14,314 nucleotides of DNA, taken from an uncultured bacterium (GTDB lineage Bacteria > Abyssobacteria > SURF-5). Shown one piece after another: positions 2,164-14,229 of this stretch. The DNA lies in the NCBI GenBank assembly GCA_964510165.1, contig CAZEBC010000092.1, positions 1,282 to 15,595 on the forward strand, in the 5' to 3' direction. How positions within the stretch are numbered: the first letter of the stretch is position 1; each line of letters opens with the position of its first letter. The position numbers were made by a program, and so were the translations under genes. A model generated the notes under the pieces. That model saw nothing but the letters and a program-made list of their open reading frames with translations, was not told the DNA's origin and did not search any database.

Positions 2164-4710
2164 TCAGGAATCGAGCACGGTCCTTACCTTCGAGAGAAGC
2201 GCCTCGGCGTGGTAGGGCTTCTGCAGGAAGCCCATGACTCCGCTGTCAAGGATTTCCTTTGCCTTCCCGTTCTGACTGTAGCCGGTTGACAGGAGCGTCT
2301 TCACCCCGGGATTGAGTTTCTTCAGATTCAGGAACGTTTCCCGCCCACCCATGCGCGGCATGATCATATCCAATATCGTGAGGTCGATCTTATCGAGTAA
2401 CTCCTGGTAGATTCTGACGGCTTCCTCCCCGTCCTCCGCGACTATGACCCTGTATCCGTAGTTCTCCAGTATATCCTTCGCCAACGCACGAATCGAATCC
2501 TCGTCATCAACCACAAGTATCAGTTCATTCCCTTTGAGCGGAGGCTCGCACCCTGCGGGGTCTTTGGCTTCCATCTTTCCGCTTACGGGCAGGTATATCT
2601 TGAACGTCGAGCCTTCACCCACTTCACTATACACGTTTATATAGCCCCCGTGATTCTTGACGACCCCGTATACCATCGAGAGTCCCAGGCCCGTTCCCTT
2701 GCCCTCTTCCTTCGTCGTGAAGAACGGCTCGAACACCCTCTGCATGGTCGCTGAATCCATGCCGATGCCGGTATCGGTCACCGACAGGATCACATAGGCC
2801 CCGGGGCGCGCATCCGCATGGGTCTTCAGATATTCCTCCGTGAGAACCACCGCGCCCGTTTCGATGATGAGTTTTCCTCCGTTCGGCATTGCGTCACGCG
2901 CGTTCACGCAGAGATTCATGAGCACTTGCTGCATCTGGGCGGCGTCGGCCTCGACTGTGGGCAGCGATTCACACAAATGCGCCTCGATGACAATGGATTT
3001 GTCAAAGGTCCGCCCGATTATCTCGAGAACATCATGTATGACGGTAGTCAGGTTGATGATCTTGGCCTCGTACTTGCCGCCCCGCGCAAACGCGAGCAGT
3101 TGGCCCGTGAGTTCGGCCGCGCGGCTGGCGCTCCTCTCGATCGTGTTCACGTAATTGAAGAACTCATGCTCCTTGGAAAGCTTGGTCTTCATGAACGAGG
3201 CGTATCCGAGGATGCCTCCCAGGAGATTGTTGAAATCGTGGGCTATCCCGCCCGCCAACGTGCCGATGCTCTCCATCTTCTGCGCCTGCATCAATTGGCG
3301 CTCAAGCTGCTTGCGGTCGGTTATGTCGCGCGCCACCGAGACGACGGCTATCACCTTGCCGTCCCTCATCAGAGGCGCTCCGCTCACGCTGCCCAGCCTG
3401 CGCTTGCCCTCCTTTGTGATGAACTCGTATTCGCTCGAAATGATGCGTTCGCCCGCGAACACGCGGCCCGCCTCCTCAAGCGCCTTTTCAAAATACTCCG
3501 GCGCCAGAACGTTCAGTTCCCCGAAATTGCGCCCTATCAATTCTTCCGGCCTGTAGCCCAACAGCCTCTCAACCGAAGGCGACACACTCGTCACACAATA
3601 GTTGGAATCGTAGGAATATATGCAGTCGTTCACGTGTTCGAAGTGAAGCCTGTATCGCTCCTCGCTTTCACGAAGCGCCTGCTCGGCCCGCTTCCGTTCG
3701 GTTATATCCAGGAAGATGGCCTGCACGGCAGGCCCACCACGATATTCAATCCGGCTTGCGAGCATCTCGAGCCAGCTCGCCGTGCCGTCCTTCTTGATTG
3801 CCTTGAACTCGTATCGCGCGGGCTCACCCTTGCTCTCCAACCGCTCCTTGAAACGCTCCCACACAGCCTTCCGGTCATCGGGATGCACAAGCTCCTGCAC
3901 TTTTTCAGATGAGAGAGACAAAAGTTCCTCAACGCTGTAACCCAAAATGTCGCCAAGCGCAGGGTTCGCAAAGACAATGCGGAAATCCTGGATGACAACA
4001 AGACCCTGCAAGGACTGTTCGACAAGCGCCTGATACTTGGCGCCGCTGTCGCGCCTCGCCTTTTCCGCTCGCTGGCGCTCTGTAATCTCCTTGCGAAGTT
4101 CCTCGTTGATGTCTTCCAGCTCGCGCTTGTGCTTGATCAGCCGCTCAGAAAGAAGCCCCGACACAATCGCCGAGGTGAAGAAGAGGAAATTGTCGCATAA
4201 CAGCTTGATGGCCAGGTATGAAGGGCTCTCATGGATATAGACGGGATTAAGGTAGGAGCGCGGAATGTGCTCAATGAGGCCGGCATACTCCGCATACAAC
4301 AGCGATGAGTACAATACCGAACTTATCGCCGCCGTCGAGATGCCCGCACGCATGCCGTAGAGCGACGCATAGGCGATGGCGACCACGGCATATATCCAGG
4401 ACGCAGGCGATTCTATCCCGCCGACATAGTGGACCGCAGCCGTCACCAGGCATACATCCACAAGCGCCGCGAAATAAATCCTGTAGCGGATCCCCTTCCC
4501 CCATACAATCCAGAGAAATGAAAGAAAATTGCTGAATAGCGCCAGCGTGATGAGGACCATCACCGACGGCAGGTAATAGAAGCCCACCTTCTCCATGGGC
4601 GAAACTACCACCGCCATGACGAGCAGAAATCCGAGTATCCCAAAACGGGCCTTTACACCCCTTAAATGTTGCGGCTCGTCCTCCGCAACACTTCGAGTGA
4701 ATGGGCGCAC
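2164..4710 (-). CDS. Hybrid sensor histidine kinase/response regulator (membrane domain, 2 PAS, HisKA, HATPase_c, receiver), about 848 aa
   Basis: H-box LAGGIAHDFNNLL, N-box QVLMNLCVNARDAM, G1 DTGIGM, F-box FEPFFTTK, G2 GTGLGL, receiver ILVVDDE...ILDMIMP...FLQKPY; two PAS domains ending in DITER/DITDR. Start moved from 4920 to the in-frame GTG at 4710, which has AGGAGAGG 6 nt upstream; the first 70 codons of the longer ORF look non-coding. Confidence 0.93.
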   Translation of the reverse strand: MRPFTRSVAEDEPQHLRGVKARFGILGFLLVMAVVVSPMEKVGFYYLPSVMVLITLALFSNFLSFLWIVWGKGIRYRIYFAALVDVCLVTAAVHYVGGIESPASWIYAVVAIAYASLYGMRAGISTAAISSVLYSSLLYAEYAGLIEHIPRSYLNPVYIHESPSYLAIKLLCDNFLFFTSAIVSGLLSERLIKHKRELEDINEELRKEITERQRAEKARRDSGAKYQALVEQSLQGLVVIQDFRIVFANPALGDILGYSVEELLSLSSEKVQELVHPDDRKAVWERFKERLESKGEPARYEFKAIKKDGTASWLEMLASRIEYRGGPAVQAIFLDITERKRAEQALRESEERYRLHFEHVNDCIYSYDSNYCVTSVSPSVERLLGYRPEELIGRNFGELNVLAPEYFEKALEEAGRVFAGERIISSEYEFITKEGKRRLGSVSGAPLMRDGKVIAVVSVARDITDRKQLERQLMQAQKMESIGTLAGGIAHDFNNLLGGILGYASFMKTKLSKEHEFFNYVNTIERSASRAAELTGQLLAFARGGKYEAKIINLTTVIHDVLEIIGRTFDKSIVIEAHLCESLPTVEADAAQMQQVLMNLCVNARDAMPNGGKLIIETGAVVLTEEYLKTHADARPGAYVILSVTDTGIGMDSATMQRVFEPFFTTKEEGKGTGLGLSMVYGVVKNHGGYINVYSEVGEGSTFKIYLPVSGKMEAKDPAGCEPPLKGNELILVVDDEDSIRALAKDILENYGYRVIVAEDGEEAVRIYQELLDKIDLTILDMIMPRMGGRETFLNLKKLNPGVKTLLSTGYSQNGKAKEILDSGVMGFLQKPYHAEALLSKVRTVLDS

Positions 4711-4778
4711 CTTCGGCCTCTCCTGTGGACAAGCACAATTCCCCAACGGGCAAATGAATGGACTCGCGTCTTTGTCAG

Positions 4779-4794
4779 AGCATTTTCTGTGCCA
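4779..4794 (-). promoter_or_regulatory. Candidate sigma-54 (-24/-12) promoter of the hybrid kinase
   Basis: Minus strand reads TGGCACAGAAAATGCT: exact GG-N10-GC spacing and one mismatch to TGGCAC-N5-TTGC; about 70 nt upstream of the GTG start. Confidence 0.6.
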
Positions 4795-5035
4795 CAACGG
4801 AAGCGCGGCGCGCCAATAAACGCAAGCTATTGCAGGATTGATGGTTAGAATGTAGACAAGGCAGCGATGTGAACTTTCCTTCGTGCATGAAGGTGAGTGA
4901 TGTTGCACATAAGTGGGCACGTGAGAGGACGCGAAGACATGATTCTCCAGAGTCTTTTCTCACCGTTCGACACGGCCGTATCAGGCGAGGCGCGCTTGCC
5001 CAAAGCACGGCCGCCGTCTCTGATTGGAAATCTAT

Positions 5036-7381: not shown

Positions 7382-7681
7382 CTAATAGCGATACCCGTAG
7401 CCGTGATAGTAGTACCCCCTGTACGGATACGGATATACATAGGGGTACGGGTAAGGGTACGGATAAGCCCTGTAGTATCCATAGGGATATGGATACGGCG
7501 CAGGATACACATAGTACGGCCGCGGATAAACCGGCACATTGAAGTTGAACCCCACCGAGAAATGGCTGTGGCCATGATGCCACGAATGCGCGAGCGCATT
7601 CCCCGAAAGCCCGAATCCCAGCAGTCCAACAGCCAGTAATCCCGTGACGAGCAACCTGCAAAACCCAAAGCCAACCTTCAT
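7382..7681 (-). CDS. Small exported Tyr/Pro-rich protein (YP repeats) with an N-terminal His patch, 99 aa
   Basis: GGAGG 8 nt before ATG 7681; signal peptide MKVGFGFCRLLVTGLLAVGLLGFGLSGNALA; the mature 68 aa contain 23 Tyr and 13 Pro. The signal peptide is similar to that of the neighbouring gene. Confidence 0.82.
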   Translation of the reverse strand: MKVGFGFCRLLVTGLLAVGLLGFGLSGNALAHSWHHGHSHFSVGFNFNVPVYPRPYYVYPAPYPYPYGYYRAYPYPYPYPYVYPYPYRGYYYHGYGYRY

Positions 7682-7809
7682 GTTCTGACCTCCCGTCCAA
7701 TCTAAACAAGCCTTTTGTCCATCCACTATCTTAGACGGTTCTAAATAGTCACTCATTCAATACGAAATTCGACTCGAACAAACCGCCAGAATCAAGAACT
7801 CCAGCCCAG

Positions 7810-8825: not shown

Positions 8826-9185
8826 ATGGCTAGGAACGTCGGCATCATCTACTGCAAGAGAATCCAGGACCAAAGCTGCGTCGGTTGCGCGAAGTGCTAC
8901 AAGGCCGTCAACGACAAGGCCTTCGCCTTCGAGGGACAGAGCGACGTCAGGCTTGTGTTCAAGACAAGTTGCGGCGATTGCCCCGGACTCGTCCTGCCGA
9001 AACTGCAACTGCAGATGGGTGTCCTCGAGAAACTCGGAGAAAAAGTGGATGAGATCTACTTCGGCACCTGCGTCAAGAAAGCGCATGCCGTCATGAACTG
9101 CCCCATGAATCTTGACGGCATCAAAAACAAAATCGAGGAGATATTCAAGGTCCCTGCCAAAGTCGGCACCCATGATTTCCCGTAA
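8826..9185 (+). CDS. CGGC-domain Cys-rich putative metal/Fe-S-binding protein, 119 aa
   Basis: Strong RBS GAGGAGAGAGGTG; pattern VGIIYC...CVGCAKC...AF...SCGDCPG...IYFGTC...CP...VGTH matches the CGGC domain (CGDC variant); 8 Cys. Confidence 0.88.
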   Translation: MARNVGIIYCKRIQDQSCVGCAKCYKAVNDKAFAFEGQSDVRLVFKTSCGDCPGLVLPKLQLQMGVLEKLGEKVDEIYFGTCVKKAHAVMNCPMNLDGIKNKIEEIFKVPAKVGTHDFP

Positions 9186-9212
9186 TCCATCGCTCTCGTG
9201 CAGTATCTCTTG

Positions 9213-10256
9213 TCAGTCGGGAGACCGCATCCTCTTGCTGAGGGCGTCCATGAGGGATTTGCAGGAAGGATCGGTTCTCATCTTGTCCTCGATCTTTCGG
9301 CAGGCGTGCAATACCGTGGTGTGGTCCTTGCGGCCAAAGGCCCGGCCTATCTCGGCAAGCGATGCCGTGGTGAATTTTCTCGTCAGGTACATCGCCGCCT
9401 GACGGGGAAATGCAACGGAGCGCCCTCGGCGCGTCGAGGAAAGCTCGGAGAGCTTGACCTCGAAGAATTTCGCCGTAATCTGCTTTATGTCCTCGACCGT
9501 GAGGTCGCGCGGAGCGGTCCGCTCGAAAAGGTCCTTGAGCACTTCCCGCGCGAGTTCAACCGTCGGCGCTTCGCCGCGCAGGCTCGCCGCGGCCACGACT
9601 CTGGTCAGAGCGCCCTCCAATTCGCGGATATTCGAATCAATCCGTTCCGCTATCAGGAGCACAACCTCACGCGGAATGTCCGCCTTGCAGCTCCTCGTCT
9701 TCTTCTCGAGAATCGCGACGCGCGTCTCGAACTCAGGCGGTTCAATACGGGTCACAAGCCCCCACTCGAACCTGCTCACAAGCCGCTCCTCAAGCGTGGG
9801 TATCTGCTTCGGAGCCCGATCGGACGAAATCACTATCTGCCTCTTCTTATCGTGCAGCGCGTTGAAGGTGTGAAAAAACTCCTCCTGCGTGGCGTCTTTG
9901 CCGGCTATAAAGTGAATATCATCAATGAGCAGGAAATCAATCTCTCGGAATCGCCGTCTGAACTCCTGCGTAGACCCCGTCTGTATCGCCGAAATAAGTT
10001 GGTTTGTGAATTGCTCGGTAGACAGGTACAAGGCCTTCAGACTTTCCTGATGCCTCGACAAAGTGTAATGCCGAATCGCATGCAGAAGATGCGTCTTGCC
10101 CAAGCCCACCCCGCTGTAAATGAACAGCGGATTGTAGAGCTCGCCCGGCCGCTCCGCTACACCTCTGGCTGCGGAATGCGCAAACAAGTTGCAGGACCCG
10201 ACAACAAAATTCTCAAACGTGTACTGGGGATAGACCGCCGAGAGTTGCTTCTTCAT
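9213..10256 (-). CDS. dnaA: DnaA homologue with only the AAA+ (III) and DNA-binding (IV) domains, 347 aa
   Basis: YTFENFVVG, YNPLFIYSGVGLGKTHL (Walker A), LLIDDI (Walker B), TQEEFFHTFN, RLVSRFEWGL (Arg finger), NIRELEGAL (sensor II), PRQAAMYL and DHTTVLHA (domain IV). An in-frame TAA lies 6 codons upstream of the ATG, so domains I/II are absent. Confidence 0.95.
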   Translation of the reverse strand: MKKQLSAVYPQYTFENFVVGSCNLFAHSAARGVAERPGELYNPLFIYSGVGLGKTHLLHAIRHYTLSRHQESLKALYLSTEQFTNQLISAIQTGSTQEFRRRFREIDFLLIDDIHFIAGKDATQEEFFHTFNALHDKKRQIVISSDRAPKQIPTLEERLVSRFEWGLVTRIEPPEFETRVAILEKKTRSCKADIPREVVLLIAERIDSNIRELEGALTRVVAAASLRGEAPTVELAREVLKDLFERTAPRDLTVEDIKQITAKFFEVKLSELSSTRRGRSVAFPRQAAMYLTRKFTTASLAEIGRAFGRKDHTTVLHACRKIEDKMRTDPSCKSLMDALSKRMRSPD

Positions 10257-10305
10257 GCGAATACCGAACGATTAATCCAGACCCGCGCCGCTGTCTCTCT
10301 AAAAC

Positions 10306-10419
10306 CAATCCACAAAGTTATCAACATCCAAGCCCATCGAGCATAACACCTTGATATCACAAATGTTAGCATGAAACCAGCAAGAATATGAGCCGATTCT
10401 GTCCACAGACTTATCCACA
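10306..10419 (+). promoter_or_regulatory. Two tandem pairs of DnaA boxes upstream of dnaA
   Basis: CAATCCACA (10306-10314) plus TTATCAACA (10318-10326), and CTGTCCACA (10399-10407) plus perfect TTATCCACA (10411-10419); all in one orientation with a 3 nt gap in each pair. Confidence 0.8.
10340..10371 (-). promoter_or_regulatory. Candidate extended -10 promoter element(s) for dnaA
   Basis: Minus strand TGcTAACAT (10371-10363) and TGtTATGCT (10348-10340), both between the two DnaA-box pairs; no good -35. Confidence 0.35.
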
Positions 10420-10673
10420 TCGACAATGAGTAACAGAACGTGACATGAATGCGCCAGATGCCTGCAATCTTCATCTTAAACGAACGGTCGGTATAGAAAG
10501 GCCCGAGAAATCGGCCGCGCCGTTCATAGGTGCCGCAACAAGCACGGCAACCCCTATTCCGCATGTGGTGCACCTCACGTAATGCTATGTTACAGCGAGT
10601 CTGACATCAGACGGACGGGAGAGTCGTACGACATGTTGGCTTCAAGCCCTGCAGAAATGATGGGCGCGGATGT

Positions 10674-12401
10674 TCAGGCGTAGCCCATGGTCTCGCCCAG
10701 TACTTCTTCGATGGACGTGATGCCCGCAAGTATCTTCAATATGCCGGCCTCACGCAGTGTGCGCATGCCGGCTTTGATGGCGGCATCACGTATCTCTCCG
10801 GTCGAGCATCTTTTGAGTATCAAGTCCCGAAGCTCGTCATTCAAGGTCATCAGTTCATAGATACCGGTACGCCCCTTGTATCCGACGTGGAAGCACTCCT
10901 TGCACCCGCGAGCACGATATATCTTCTTCCCTTTAATGTCCTCACGGGTGAGGTTGATTGCTGCCAGTTCTTCGTCAGAGGGCTCGTACTCCTCCCGGCA
11001 GAACAGGCACAGTTTCCTGACGAGTCGCTGGGCGATGATGGCCTCGATCGTGGACGTGAGCAGGAAGGGCTCGACATCCATATCGATCATACGGGTGATG
11101 GTGCTTGGGGCGTCGTTGGTGTGAAGAGTGCTGAAGACAAGGTGGCCTGTAAGCGAGGCCTCCACCGCGAGCGCGGCGGTTTCGAGGTCGCGAATCTCGC
11201 CGACCATGCAGATATCGGGGTCCTGGCGGAGAATCGACCTCAGACATTTCGCGAAAGTAAGCCCGACCTTTTCATTGATATTCACTTGCACGATGCCGTT
11301 GACCTGATACTCTACAGGGTCTTCGGTCGTGATGATCTTCCATTGAGGGTCGTTCAACTCGTTGAGACACGCATACAGGGTTGTGGTCTTGCCCGAACCG
11401 GTCGGCCCGGTGACAAGAATGATTCCATTCGGCCTCTGGATAAGGTCTTTTATGATGTCGTGTTGTTCTTTTTCAAGTCCGAGACCGTCAAGGGATATCA
11501 TGACGGCGCTGCGGTCGAGAATACGAATCACGATGCTCTCGCCGAACATCGTCGGCAAAAACGAAATTCGAAGGTCGATATCTTTTCCGCCCAGTGTGAG
11601 CTGTATGCGGCCGTCCTGCGGAAGCCTGCGTTCGGCAATGTCAAGATTGGCCATGACCTTCAAACGCGAGCTGACGGCCAAGGCCAGATGCTTGGGCGGG
11701 GTCGCAATGTTGTAGAGCACGCCGTCAACGCGCTGCCGCACCTGGTAATCTTCCTCAAACGGCTCGAAGTGAAGGTCCGACGCACGGCTCTGGATCGCCT
11801 GGAGAATAACCAGGTTGATCAGCTTGATGACGGGACCCTCGTGGGCAAGGGATATCAGGTTGCTGGCATCGGCGATCTCCTCGCGGGTTCCTTTGCCGAT
11901 GTTCTCGTCAATGACCTTCTCGACGTCGGCGAACAGTTCATCGATGAGCGCAGCGGCGGATTGCTCCTGGTATCCGTAATACTTCTCGATTGCAGCGGCT
12001 ATCTCGCTCTGAGAACTGACGGCCCCTTCTATTTCGCAGCCGAGTATGACCTTCAGGTCGTCAATCGTATTGATGGCGAGCGGGTCGGCCATGGCGATGG
12101 TGAGCACGCCGTCGCTCTTCCTGATGGGAATAATATTGTAAAACTGCGCGATGTCGGGAGTGACAAGGTTCAGAACTTCGGAATCAATCGAAATCTGGGC
12201 AAGATTGATCTGCTCCATGCCCTGTTGAATCCCAAGGGCATTAACGATGTCTTGCTCGCTGGCGTACCCCATGCTGACGAGGGTGCGCCCAAGGAACTCC
12301 TGCGAGGCGCGCTGCTTCTCAAGGGCTTCCTCGAGTTGGGCGGCGGTGATGACACCGTTCTCAATCAGGATTTCTCCCAGATTCCTGGTTCCGAGAGTCA
12401 A
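10674..12401 (-). CDS. gspE: GspE/PilB-family type IV filament assembly ATPase (second copy), 575 aa
   Basis: MshEN-like N-terminus, RASDLHFEP, LDIAERRLPQDGRI, Walker A GPTGSGKTTT, Asp box TEDPVEY, LRQDPD, Walker B MVGEIRD, His box TGHLVFSTLHTND, tetracysteine CLFC...CKEC. TTG start with AAGGAG upstream. GspE and PilB cannot be told apart by eye. Confidence 0.93.
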   Translation of the reverse strand: MTLGTRNLGEILIENGVITAAQLEEALEKQRASQEFLGRTLVSMGYASEQDIVNALGIQQGMEQINLAQISIDSEVLNLVTPDIAQFYNIIPIRKSDGVLTIAMADPLAINTIDDLKVILGCEIEGAVSSQSEIAAAIEKYYGYQEQSAAALIDELFADVEKVIDENIGKGTREEIADASNLISLAHEGPVIKLINLVILQAIQSRASDLHFEPFEEDYQVRQRVDGVLYNIATPPKHLALAVSSRLKVMANLDIAERRLPQDGRIQLTLGGKDIDLRISFLPTMFGESIVIRILDRSAVMISLDGLGLEKEQHDIIKDLIQRPNGIILVTGPTGSGKTTTLYACLNELNDPQWKIITTEDPVEYQVNGIVQVNINEKVGLTFAKCLRSILRQDPDICMVGEIRDLETAALAVEASLTGHLVFSTLHTNDAPSTITRMIDMDVEPFLLTSTIEAIIAQRLVRKLCLFCREEYEPSDEELAAINLTREDIKGKKIYRARGCKECFHVGYKGRTGIYELMTLNDELRDLILKRCSTGEIRDAAIKAGMRTLREAGILKILAGITSIEEVLGETMGYA

Positions 12402-12435
12402 GACTGATTCACTCTCCTTCTCTACTCACCGTTCT

Positions 12436-14229
12436 TTACGATACGCTCTTCACCAATTTCAACCCGGGGATGGGGTCGTCCATCTGAGTTATCGCCACAG
12501 CTTCTTCGATGGTGGTGGTGCCGTTGAATACCTTGAGCCATGCGTCGTCTCGCAGCGTCCTCATGCCCATGCGGCGAGCCTGGTTCTTCAGATTGTTCGT
12601 GGGCTCGCGCCTGAGCACCATCTCGCGGATAGTCTCGTTCATGACCAAAAGTTCGAGCACCGTCGTCCGACCATGATAGCCTCGCCGATTGCAGCTCTCG
12701 CAGCCGGCTCCCTTATGGAACGTGATATCCCGCACCTCATCGGGATTGAGGCCTACGTGCCGCAGTTTCTCATCGGTCGGATGGTCTTCGGTCTTGCAGC
12801 TCTTGCATATCTTTCGCACGAGGCGCTGGGCCGAGACGGCCTGCACGGCCGACGCGACAAGGAAGGGCTTGATGCCCATGTCGATGAGTCGGTTCAGCGC
12901 GCCCGCCGAGTCGTTGGTGTGAAGCGTGCTGAACACCAAATGGCCGGTGAGCGACGCCCTGATGGCAATTTCCGCCGTCTCGCTGTCGCGGATTTCACCG
13001 ACCATCACGATGTCCGGCGACTGCCGCAGAATGGACCTCAGTCCTGCGGCAAATGTGAGCCCTATTTCTTCTTCAATCTGCACCTGATTGATGCCCGAAA
13101 GCACGTATTCAACCGGGTTCTCAATAGTGATTATCTTGCGTTCAGGCGTATTGATGGTGTTCAAGGAAGCGTACAGCGTCGTCGTCTTGCCCGAACCGGT
13201 CGGCCCGGTCACCAGCACGATGCCGGTCGGGATGTGAAGAAGTCCCTCCCACGTTCTCAGGGTATCCGGCGCATAACCCAAGTCGCGCAAATCGAGCGCC
13301 AGGCTGCTCTTGTCAAGGATACGGAGCACGAAGCTCTCGCCGTAAATGGCTGGCAGCGCCGACGCGCGAAGGTCAATGTCCTTGCCCATTAATTGAATCT
13401 TGATACGACCGTCCTGCGGAATCCTTTTCTCGGAAATGTCCATTCCGGCCATCAGCTTCAGACGCGAAAGGATGGCGTTTTGCAGTGCCTTGGGAGGCGG
13501 GTTCACCTCGTGCAGCACGCCGTCAATGCGATACCGCACTTTCAGCTCGCGCTCGAAAGGCTCTATGTGAATATCGCTCGCCCGATGCCTGAACGCTTCG
13601 AGGATGAGCAGGGTCACAAGCTTGATTATCGGCCCCTCATCCGATTCCTCGTCATCGCTTCCCTCCATGATGGAGCCGTCGAACTCGATGCTCTCCACGC
13701 TGAGGCTGCTCACGCTCAAGCTCGACACGGTGCTGAGACTGTCGCCGCTGACCTGAGACAACATGGTGTCAACGGTGACTTCCTCGAGCCCGTAGTACTT
13801 GCGAATCGCCTCCTTGATGTCCTCGGGCGTGGCGATGACAGGGCTGATGTTGCACTCGAGCAGGAGCCGCAGATTGTCCACAACGCCAAGATTGGTCGGG
13901 TCGGCCATCGCGACATAAAGATTCTTGCCGTCTTTTCTGACCGGGATCACCTGGTAGATTTTCGCTATCGAGGCCTGGACAAACTCAATCAACTCCTCTG
14001 ATATTTCGAGATTCGCGAGATTGACCAGAGGGAGGTTCAGTTGGGTCGCAAGCGCTTCGGCAAGATGCTTGGAGGTTATATACCCGAAACTTACCAGAAC
14101 GTCGCCCAGACGCCGGTTGCTCGCGCGCGTCTGCTGGCGCTTAAGGGCATCCTGCAACTGCTCTTGCGTGATGGCGCCCTGAGCCAGAAGTATCTGCCCG
14201 AGCGACTTGCTGCTCTCGATAACAGCCAC
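12436..14229 (-). CDS. gspE: GspE/PilB-family type IV filament assembly ATPase (first copy), 597 aa
   Basis: MshEN-like N-terminus, RASDIHIEP, MDISEKRIPQDGRI, Walker A GPTGSGKTTT, TIENPVEY, Walker B MVGEIRD, His box TGHLVFSTLHTND, tetracysteine CKSC...CESC. GTG start with AAGGGGGA upstream. Confidence 0.93.
   Translation of the reverse strand: MAVIESSKSLGQILLAQGAITQEQLQDALKRQQTRASNRRLGDVLVSFGYITSKHLAEALATQLNLPLVNLANLEISEELIEFVQASIAKIYQVIPVRKDGKNLYVAMADPTNLGVVDNLRLLLECNISPVIATPEDIKEAIRKYYGLEEVTVDTMLSQVSGDSLSTVSSLSVSSLSVESIEFDGSIMEGSDDEESDEGPIIKLVTLLILEAFRHRASDIHIEPFERELKVRYRIDGVLHEVNPPPKALQNAILSRLKLMAGMDISEKRIPQDGRIKIQLMGKDIDLRASALPAIYGESFVLRILDKSSLALDLRDLGYAPDTLRTWEGLLHIPTGIVLVTGPTGSGKTTTLYASLNTINTPERKIITIENPVEYVLSGINQVQIEEEIGLTFAAGLRSILRQSPDIVMVGEIRDSETAEIAIRASLTGHLVFSTLHTNDSAGALNRLIDMGIKPFLVASAVQAVSAQRLVRKICKSCKTEDHPTDEKLRHVGLNPDEVRDITFHKGAGCESCNRRGYHGRTTVLELLVMNETIREMVLRREPTNNLKNQARRMGMRTLRDDAWLKVFNGTTTIEEAVAITQMDDPIPGLKLVKSVS

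Follow-up and report, generated by a model that had tools for sequence, protein, structure and literature searches.

A 14,314-nt stretch of contig C92 from an uncultured bacterium (hereafter the window) encodes a short DnaA protein, sDnaA, that retains the AAA+ ATPase domain (domain III) and the DNA-binding domain (domain IV) of the replication initiator and lacks domains I and II. From the sequence of the protein, its relatives and the DNA in front of its gene, we think it somewhat probable that sDnaA is a lineage-specific regulator that binds DnaA boxes, or a modulator of initiation, itself controlled through DnaA boxes, and that it is not an initiator.

Within sDnaA, residues 10-169 match Bac_DnaA (Pfam PF00308, E 8.3e-68) and residues 254-322 match Bac_DnaA_C (PF08299, E 1.6e-28), the helix-turn-helix of domain IV. 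The protein also scores 482 bits against the NCBIfam equivalog model for DnaA, TIGR00362, above the cut-off of 343.9. However, the alignment to this model spans positions 102-436 only of its 437 positions, and no match to DnaA_N (PF11638) was obtained with Pfam; thus, domains I and II are missing. The motifs of the remaining domains were located in an alignment of 18 short sequences with the lineage's canonical DnaA and the enterobacterial DnaA of locus L105, positions being assigned by offset from the latter. Walker A, Walker B, sensor I, both box VII arginines (including the arginine finger) and sensor II are present in sDnaA, as are the basic-loop arginines and the DHTTVLHA signature of domain IV, and the functional roles that we give to these residues are presumably those described for DnaA. 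The ATPase and DNA-binding motifs are at least 90% conserved among the 18 short sequences, and the contact residues of domain IV are identical in sDnaA and canonical DnaA. Among solved structures, the closest are DnaA chains (8btg, E 5.8e-120; 2z4r; 1l8q; 2hcb), which align end to end, and proteins of the sDnaA type carry the database label 'chromosomal replication initiator protein DnaA'. A PADLOC search with sDnaA returned no families, and a search of PHROGs returned only weak matches to DnaC-like helicase loaders (best E 5.4e-15).

These results bear out an earlier note on this DNA, made from the letters alone, in which the gene was described as a DnaA without domains I and II but intact in its ATPase and DNA-binding domains. 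The note also had the gene lying away from dnaN, rpmH, recF and gyrB. None of these is adjacent; the neighbours are two GspE/PilB-type ATPase genes on the 5' side and a short-chain dehydrogenase gene downstream. The features of the locus are collected in Table 1.

Table 1. Positions in the window of the sDnaA gene, its leader and the upstream genes. A1 is the alignment of leaders from eight genomes.
Feature	Position	Strand	Basis
sDnaA coding sequence, 347 aa, AAA+ domain III and DNA-binding domain IV	9213..10256	-	ORF, Pfam and NCBIfam
Leader separating PilB1 from sDnaA, non-coding, with islands of conserved sequence	10257..10673	-	Alignment A1 (8 genomes)
Conserved motif ATCGTTCGGTA, ending 5 nt before the ATG at the expected Shine-Dalgarno site	10262..10272	-	A1
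In-frame TAA, six codons 5' of the sDnaA ATG	10272..10274	-	Sequence
Proximal pair, DnaA-box-like 9-mer (TGTGGATTG in gene direction)	10306..10314	+	12 bp from the box at 10318..10326
Proximal pair, first box, 1 mismatch (TTATCAACA)	10318..10326	+	A1
Distal pair, DnaA-box-like 9-mer, 2 mismatches (TGTGGACAG in gene direction)	10399..10407	+	12 bp from the first box
Distal pair, first box, perfect DnaA box TTATCCACA (TGTGGATAA in gene direction)	10411..10419	+	Conserved A1 columns
Second imperfect palindrome, TGTAAC-N6-GTTACA type	10430..10445	-	A1
Second copy of the conserved motif (ACCGTTCGTT)	10479..10488	-	A1
Imperfect palindrome, TGTAAC-N6-GTTACA type, candidate operator	10579..10594	-	Conserved in A1
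PilB1, GspE/PilB-type ATPase with MshEN, directly 5' of the leader	10674..12401	-	Pfam (T2SSE E 1.5e-141, MshEN E 3.8e-19)
PilB2, second GspE/PilB-type ATPase with MshEN	12436..14229	-	Pfam, synteny

The start of the gene is well defined. The stop codon that had been noted in frame six codons upstream of the ATG is confirmed, each of nine short genes has an in-frame stop 5-19 codons 5' of the aligned start, and these genes, from nine independent genomes, are all intact and share the start position. The first 8-10 residues of the protein are variable among the nine orthologues. In the window protein they include the sequence QLSAVY, which resembles the clamp-binding motif conserved at the N-terminus of Hda; this candidate was rejected, as the sequence is absent from the eight other orthologues. 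A domain I hidden upstream was likewise rejected: a tblastn search with the N-terminus of canonical DnaA gave chance matches only, none of them within 10257-10673, a 106-aa ORF in the 417 bp upstream of sDnaA matches no Pfam family, and none of the leader's ORFs is kept across the eight genomes. The 106-aa ORF overlaps the sDnaA start in an ATGA arrangement, and translational coupling through this overlap was considered and rejected because the ORF is not kept in relatives.

Independent assemblies agree with the sequence of this region. Contigs from four public runs (X1-X4), belonging to three studies, cover parts of 9858-10800 with no insertions or deletions reported. The X1 contig covers all of 9858-10800 but possibly derives from the source sample, whereas the others cover 10166-10618 (X2), 10098-10286 and 10269-10639 (X3), and 10254-10499 (X4). 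An assembly error or frameshift that would restore a domain I, which the earlier note had named as grounds for abandoning its reading, was therefore found neither in these contigs nor by tblastn or among the leader ORFs. No RNA run is listed with the sDnaA locus; the organism itself occurs in freshwater and hot-spring habitats.

The gene is not the only dnaA of its genome, an assembly of 4.17 Mb in 325 contigs that is 97% complete and has a G+C content of 57.7%. The DnaA ATPase family gives five matches there, falling in four genes. As the earlier note had proposed checking, a full-length dnaA beside dnaN does exist: on contig C58, dnaN is directly preceded by a canonical gene, whose 446-aa product is 52% identical to sDnaA over 335 aa. 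Thus, sDnaA is a second DnaA. The canonical dnaA is also the sole match to PF11638 in the whole genome, so that a stand-alone domain I complementing sDnaA in trans was rejected. Searches with sDnaA as the query found canonical DnaA in eight of the nine other genomes of the family, the exception being G008.

The third gene, on contig C7 (L149:8734-10047 (+); also L003:907-2220), encodes a 437-aa fusion of MshEN to DnaA domain III that has no domain IV and is 44% identical to sDnaA. Its MshEN part scores 46.8 bits on the NCBIfam model of a c-di-GMP-binding motif (cut-off 38), and the gene heads a pilB-pilT-pilS-pilR-pilC operon. Homologues of the fusion occur in 10 of 11 genomes of the class and in eight of the nine other family genomes, the one in which none was found being G003 (77% complete); a full-text literature search found no paper on an MshEN-DnaA fusion. 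The fourth gene is an open frame of about 1,690 codons (G000:C99:4289-9379; L150) with DnaA-like AAA+ modules at both ends, separated by a coiled coil of roughly 1,000 residues, and similar open frames of 1,722-1,754 aa are present in G005 and G007. Proteins with a pair of DnaA-like stretches, 673-1,990 aa in length, are also present in a library of representative sequences.

The distribution of the short form is narrow. We searched 30 other genomes, nine from the same GTDB family, one from a sister family and 20 from other phyla. A short orthologue is present in eight of the nine family members (open frames of 353-363 aa, 64-69% identity); none was found in the ninth, G005, in the sister-family genome or in the 20 genomes of other phyla. 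When a large collection of proteins was searched, the query itself was followed by 25 clusters of short proteins (320-357 aa, 60-79% identity), none with DnaA_N. These outrank every full-length DnaA, the first of which appears at 56% identity, with none above 60%. The NCBI labels of the short clusters vary between Candidatus Abyssubacteria, Lindowbacteria and Poribacteria. Outside the family there were two candidate short forms, P0165 (360 aa) and P0121 (347 aa), each encoded by a contig of roughly 1.2 kb; these were rejected as gene calls that may be truncated at the 5' end. A search of genome contigs for related loci returned 80, all of them canonical DnaAs of other phyla with 46-56% identity, which have conserved peptide patterns in common with the query.

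A tree built from 58 sequences unites the 18 short proteins in a single clade (SH-aLRT 100) on a long stem, and the canonical DnaAs of the family and the MshEN fusions each form a clade of their own. The single clade and its long shared stem argue that the short form is old. When the short clade was constrained to group with the canonical DnaA of the lineage, the tree was better by 37 log-likelihood units, with a p-AU of 0.907, which fits, without proving, an origin of sDnaA by duplication within the lineage. The short form has since changed faster, with a mean identity of 69.7% versus 79.7% for the canonical protein over the same columns in 28 genome pairs. Values of dN/dS are 0.05-0.14 for the short gene (seven pairs) and 0.04-0.07 for the canonical gene; the short-gene values are rough because synonymous sites are saturated (dS 1.1-2.7). 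In so far as codon comparisons allow, they indicate purifying selection on the short dnaA at close to the canonical level. The earlier note had argued that the gene is not decaying and had suggested phylogeny and dN/dS as checks. Both speak for it: the orthologues in relatives are short and intact, not full-length, and are under purifying selection.

The short dnaA keeps constant company. In the loci of all seven relatives compared, the order is PilB2, PilB1, a spacer of 416-616 bp and the short dnaA, and in all seven sDnaA is followed on the same strand by genes for an LMW phosphatase and PolX. In the case of G001, a type II secretion cluster (gspC, D, E, F, J-like, K, L and M) closes with this block, and the phosphatase and PolX genes come next. 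This cluster (G001:C6:112681-127998; loci L140 and L141) contains three GspE-type ATPase genes, each with MshEN, one after gspD and two after gspM. The genome of the window is arranged differently, in that gspK-L-M lie on C2 (C2:17800-20854), C31 ends with the phosphatase and PolX genes (C31:25014-27176), and the PilB2-PilB1-sDnaA block (9213-14229) is on C92, with downstream genes other than those of the seven relatives. The downstream junction on C92 is supported by the X2 and X3 contigs, which run 400-550 bases below window position 9100. Since the block is intact where its flanks differ, PilB2, PilB1 and sDnaA stay together.

Two other genes of the window may be mentioned here. At 2164-4920 (-) lies a gene for a 918-aa hybrid histidine kinase with a PilS-like 6TM part, two PAS domains, HisKA, HATPase and a receiver, and hence another pilus-type sensor near the sDnaA locus. 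At 7382-7756 (-) is a 124-aa ORF without a Pfam family, whose product has an N-terminal hydrophobic stretch and a Tyr/Pro/Gly-rich tail with YPYPYPYP repeats.

G005 shows what the block looks like without sDnaA. On its contig C64 (L129:3220-4165), PilB2, PilB1 and the leader with its DnaA boxes are kept, the short dnaA and the LMW phosphatase gene are gone, and the leader is followed by a 22-codon ORF and then PolX. No remnant of sDnaA was found in this genome (98% complete) beyond the leader. Such a clean loss with retention of the leader means that sDnaA is dispensable, and the leader boxes may serve something other than the control of sDnaA.

The leader itself is conserved in islands. Mean column identity in the alignment of eight leaders is 50%, and the clearest of the sharply conserved islands are two tandem pairs of DnaA boxes, oriented with the gene, in which the boxes are spaced 12 bp from start to start. 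All four boxes lie within some 115 bp, and the DNA that separates the two pairs is AT-richer. In the first box of the proximal pair, GTTGATAA is invariant in all eight sequences, and the position of the weaker distal 9-mer (10399..10407) is a good DnaA box in most relatives. Perfect DnaA boxes are rare in the window genome (33 in 4.17 Mb), and tandem pairs in the 12-bp register are rarer still, with three in the genome and 0-2 at each of the other spacings. One of the three is in the sDnaA leader, another is upstream of canonical dnaA, and the third is near groES on C78. This third pair (G000:C78:14567-14587) is intergenic, upstream of a groES-like gene.

Other islands are less easily read. 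The canonical dnaA has a strong Shine-Dalgarno sequence; by contrast, the position expected for one in front of sDnaA is occupied by a conserved motif of another kind, of which the leader holds a second copy. The word ACCGTTCG(G/T)T was rejected as a genome-wide regulatory sequence, with 11 occurrences seen against about 16 expected. A search for a regulon of the TGTAAC-N6-GTTACA palindrome found no enrichment. Rfam, at E up to 1, gave nothing in the leader, including no c-di-GMP riboswitch, and a chance match to a miRNA outside it. Neither a consensus sigma-70 promoter nor an intrinsic terminator was found in 9000-10800.

The following mechanism is suggested by these data. The most likely history of sDnaA is that the lineage duplicated its own dnaA and that one copy then lost domains I and II. 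Given its intact motifs, the protein is predicted to bind ATP, to bind the 9-bp boxes that DnaA recognises, and to be capable of contacts through domain III, either with DnaA or between sDnaA molecules. Without domain I, it would be unable to recruit the helicase or to make the other contacts of that domain, and for want of helicase recruitment would not start replication. The roles assigned here to domain I were described in model species such as E. coli, and those in this phylum may not be the same. At the boxes, sDnaA may compete with or cap canonical DnaA, thereby modulating initiation, and alternatively or additionally may act there as a transcription factor. Its own expression would be set through the two tandem box pairs of the leader, either by auto-regulation or by cross-regulation with DnaA. 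Co-inheritance with two GspE/PilB-type ATPase genes suggests, as a matter of gene order, a link between the secretion machinery and this DnaA circuit.

Parts of this arrangement are familiar from other systems. sDnaA resembles canonical DnaA in domains III and IV, in having all the motifs, in its 52% identity to the protein of its own genome and in scoring above the TIGR00362 cut-off. It differs in lacking domains I and II, in not lying beside dnaN, in being a second copy limited to one family, one member of which has lost it, and in evolving faster. Like Hda/HdaA, it is a short DnaA-family paralogue without domain I that may act on DnaA and would not be an initiator; however, Hda lacks domain IV and sDnaA has it, and sDnaA scores 103.7 bits on the Hda model TIGR03420, below the cut-off of 194.8. 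Chlamydiae have two dnaA copies, apparently of full length. They share with the present case the presence of more than one DnaA-type gene per genome and of a copy away from dnaN, but in sDnaA domain I is missing, and the window genome has four genes of the DnaA family.

The closest parallel in domain content is artificial. Chains of Aquifex DnaA(III-IV) form ATP-dependent filaments. Such engineered proteins of E. coli and Aquifex aeolicus (1l8q, 2hcb, 3r8f) comprise the same domains as sDnaA, and the crystallised Aquifex chains (323-324 residues) align to sDnaA residues 9-342; the difference is that these are laboratory constructs, whereas sDnaA is a natural gene under selection beside a full-length DnaA. 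When domains I and II are removed from E. coli DnaA, the protein still opens oriC in vitro, but it fails to sustain replication and is not viable (PMC5448010). The full-text literature outside subscription journals yielded nothing relevant on naturally short DnaA paralogues or second dnaA copies, and the main text of the Candidatus Abyssubacteria genome description makes no mention of DnaA, replication, pili or c-di-GMP.

An alternative that we regard as unlikely is that sDnaA is a dedicated transcription factor with no part in replication control, for which DnaA boxes would be operators of its own gene and of neighbouring or distant ones, such as those for the LMW phosphatase, PolX and the secretion ATPases. 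In model bacteria, DnaA is established as a transcription factor, and it has reportedly been termed a master transcriptional regulator (PMC3193534). The shared strand and order of the sDnaA, phosphatase and PolX genes in all seven relatives are in keeping with such a role, as are the joint loss of sDnaA and the phosphatase in G005 and the location of the boxes in a leader and not in a recognisable origin. However, the contact residues of domain IV are the same as in canonical DnaA, so that sDnaA would meet every DnaA box, including those of the origin. In addition, the full ATPase and the arginine finger have been kept, which a plain repressor would not need, and in the window genome the phosphatase and PolX genes are on another contig.

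Less probable again is that sDnaA is a second initiator and the box-rich leader an origin, either of the chromosome or as a secondary origin under some conditions, the helicase being loaded by a route independent of domain I. Four boxes in about 115 bp, with AT-richer DNA between the pairs, next to a gene of the dnaA type would suit an origin, G005 has kept the box region after losing the gene, and in G001 no other site on the 161-kb contig has a perfect box or as dense a box cluster as the leader. Furthermore, domains III and IV of E. coli DnaA alone open oriC in vitro, although truncated E. coli DnaA does not support replication, in the experiments of PMC5448010 on this protein. Against an origin here, no turn in cumulative GC skew coincides with the locus, either on G001:C6 (161 kb) or on G004:C166 (82 kb), evidence that is weak because skew is noisy in the genomes of this family; genes run through the locus in one direction, and the gene has been lost in G005. 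The window genome also has a denser cluster elsewhere, beside serS-parB-parA on C223. This cluster (G000:C223:1616-1965), the densest in the genome with four boxes, two of them perfect, lies between a gene with a metallo-beta-lactamase fold and serS, with parB and parA adjoining, and makes a stronger candidate for oriC than the dnaA-dnaN locus does. The leader as origin is thus possible but unlikely.

That faulty assembly produced the gene, or that it is a duplicate in decay, as its faster evolution, its loss from one family member and the missing Shine-Dalgarno sequence might suggest, is barely credible and is already contradicted by the data, namely the independent contigs of three studies without indels, nine of nine genes intact with a common start, dN/dS of at most 0.14, the retention of all motifs and the single clade with its long common stem.

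The favoured reading of sDnaA as a regulator acting at DnaA boxes can be extended to the other members of the family, and here we can offer only a conjecture that is improbable as it stands, namely a DnaA network of several parts wired to c-di-GMP and to the secretion and pilus ATPases. In such a network, the MshEN-DnaA(III) fusion would sense c-di-GMP, sDnaA (domains III and IV) would supply box binding, and both would form mixed oligomers with canonical DnaA through domain III. The surface or secretion state of the cell would then set initiation and DnaA-box-dependent transcription, and sDnaA, as a naturally occurring subunit that is 'unwinding-competent, loading-incompetent', would tune the firing of the origin.

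DnaA is considered unable to act as an initiator without domain I. A natural DnaA that lacks this domain, maintained by selection in a genome that also has a full-length copy, amounts to a separation-of-function variant made by nature, and could show what the ATPase and box-binding parts are capable of by themselves in the cell, be it titration, filament capping or control of transcription. There is also a practical consequence, in that the label 'chromosomal replication initiator protein DnaA' on sDnaA would mislead the prediction of origins and the use of dnaA as a marker gene. The interest of the short protein grows when it is seen as one of a four-member DnaA family tied to genes for secretion and pilus ATPases. 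Together, sDnaA, the MshEN-DnaA(III) fusion and the two-module protein suggest an expansion of the DnaA family that has gone unrecognised, possibly tied to c-di-GMP signalling, in an uncultured lineage of the subsurface and of fresh water.
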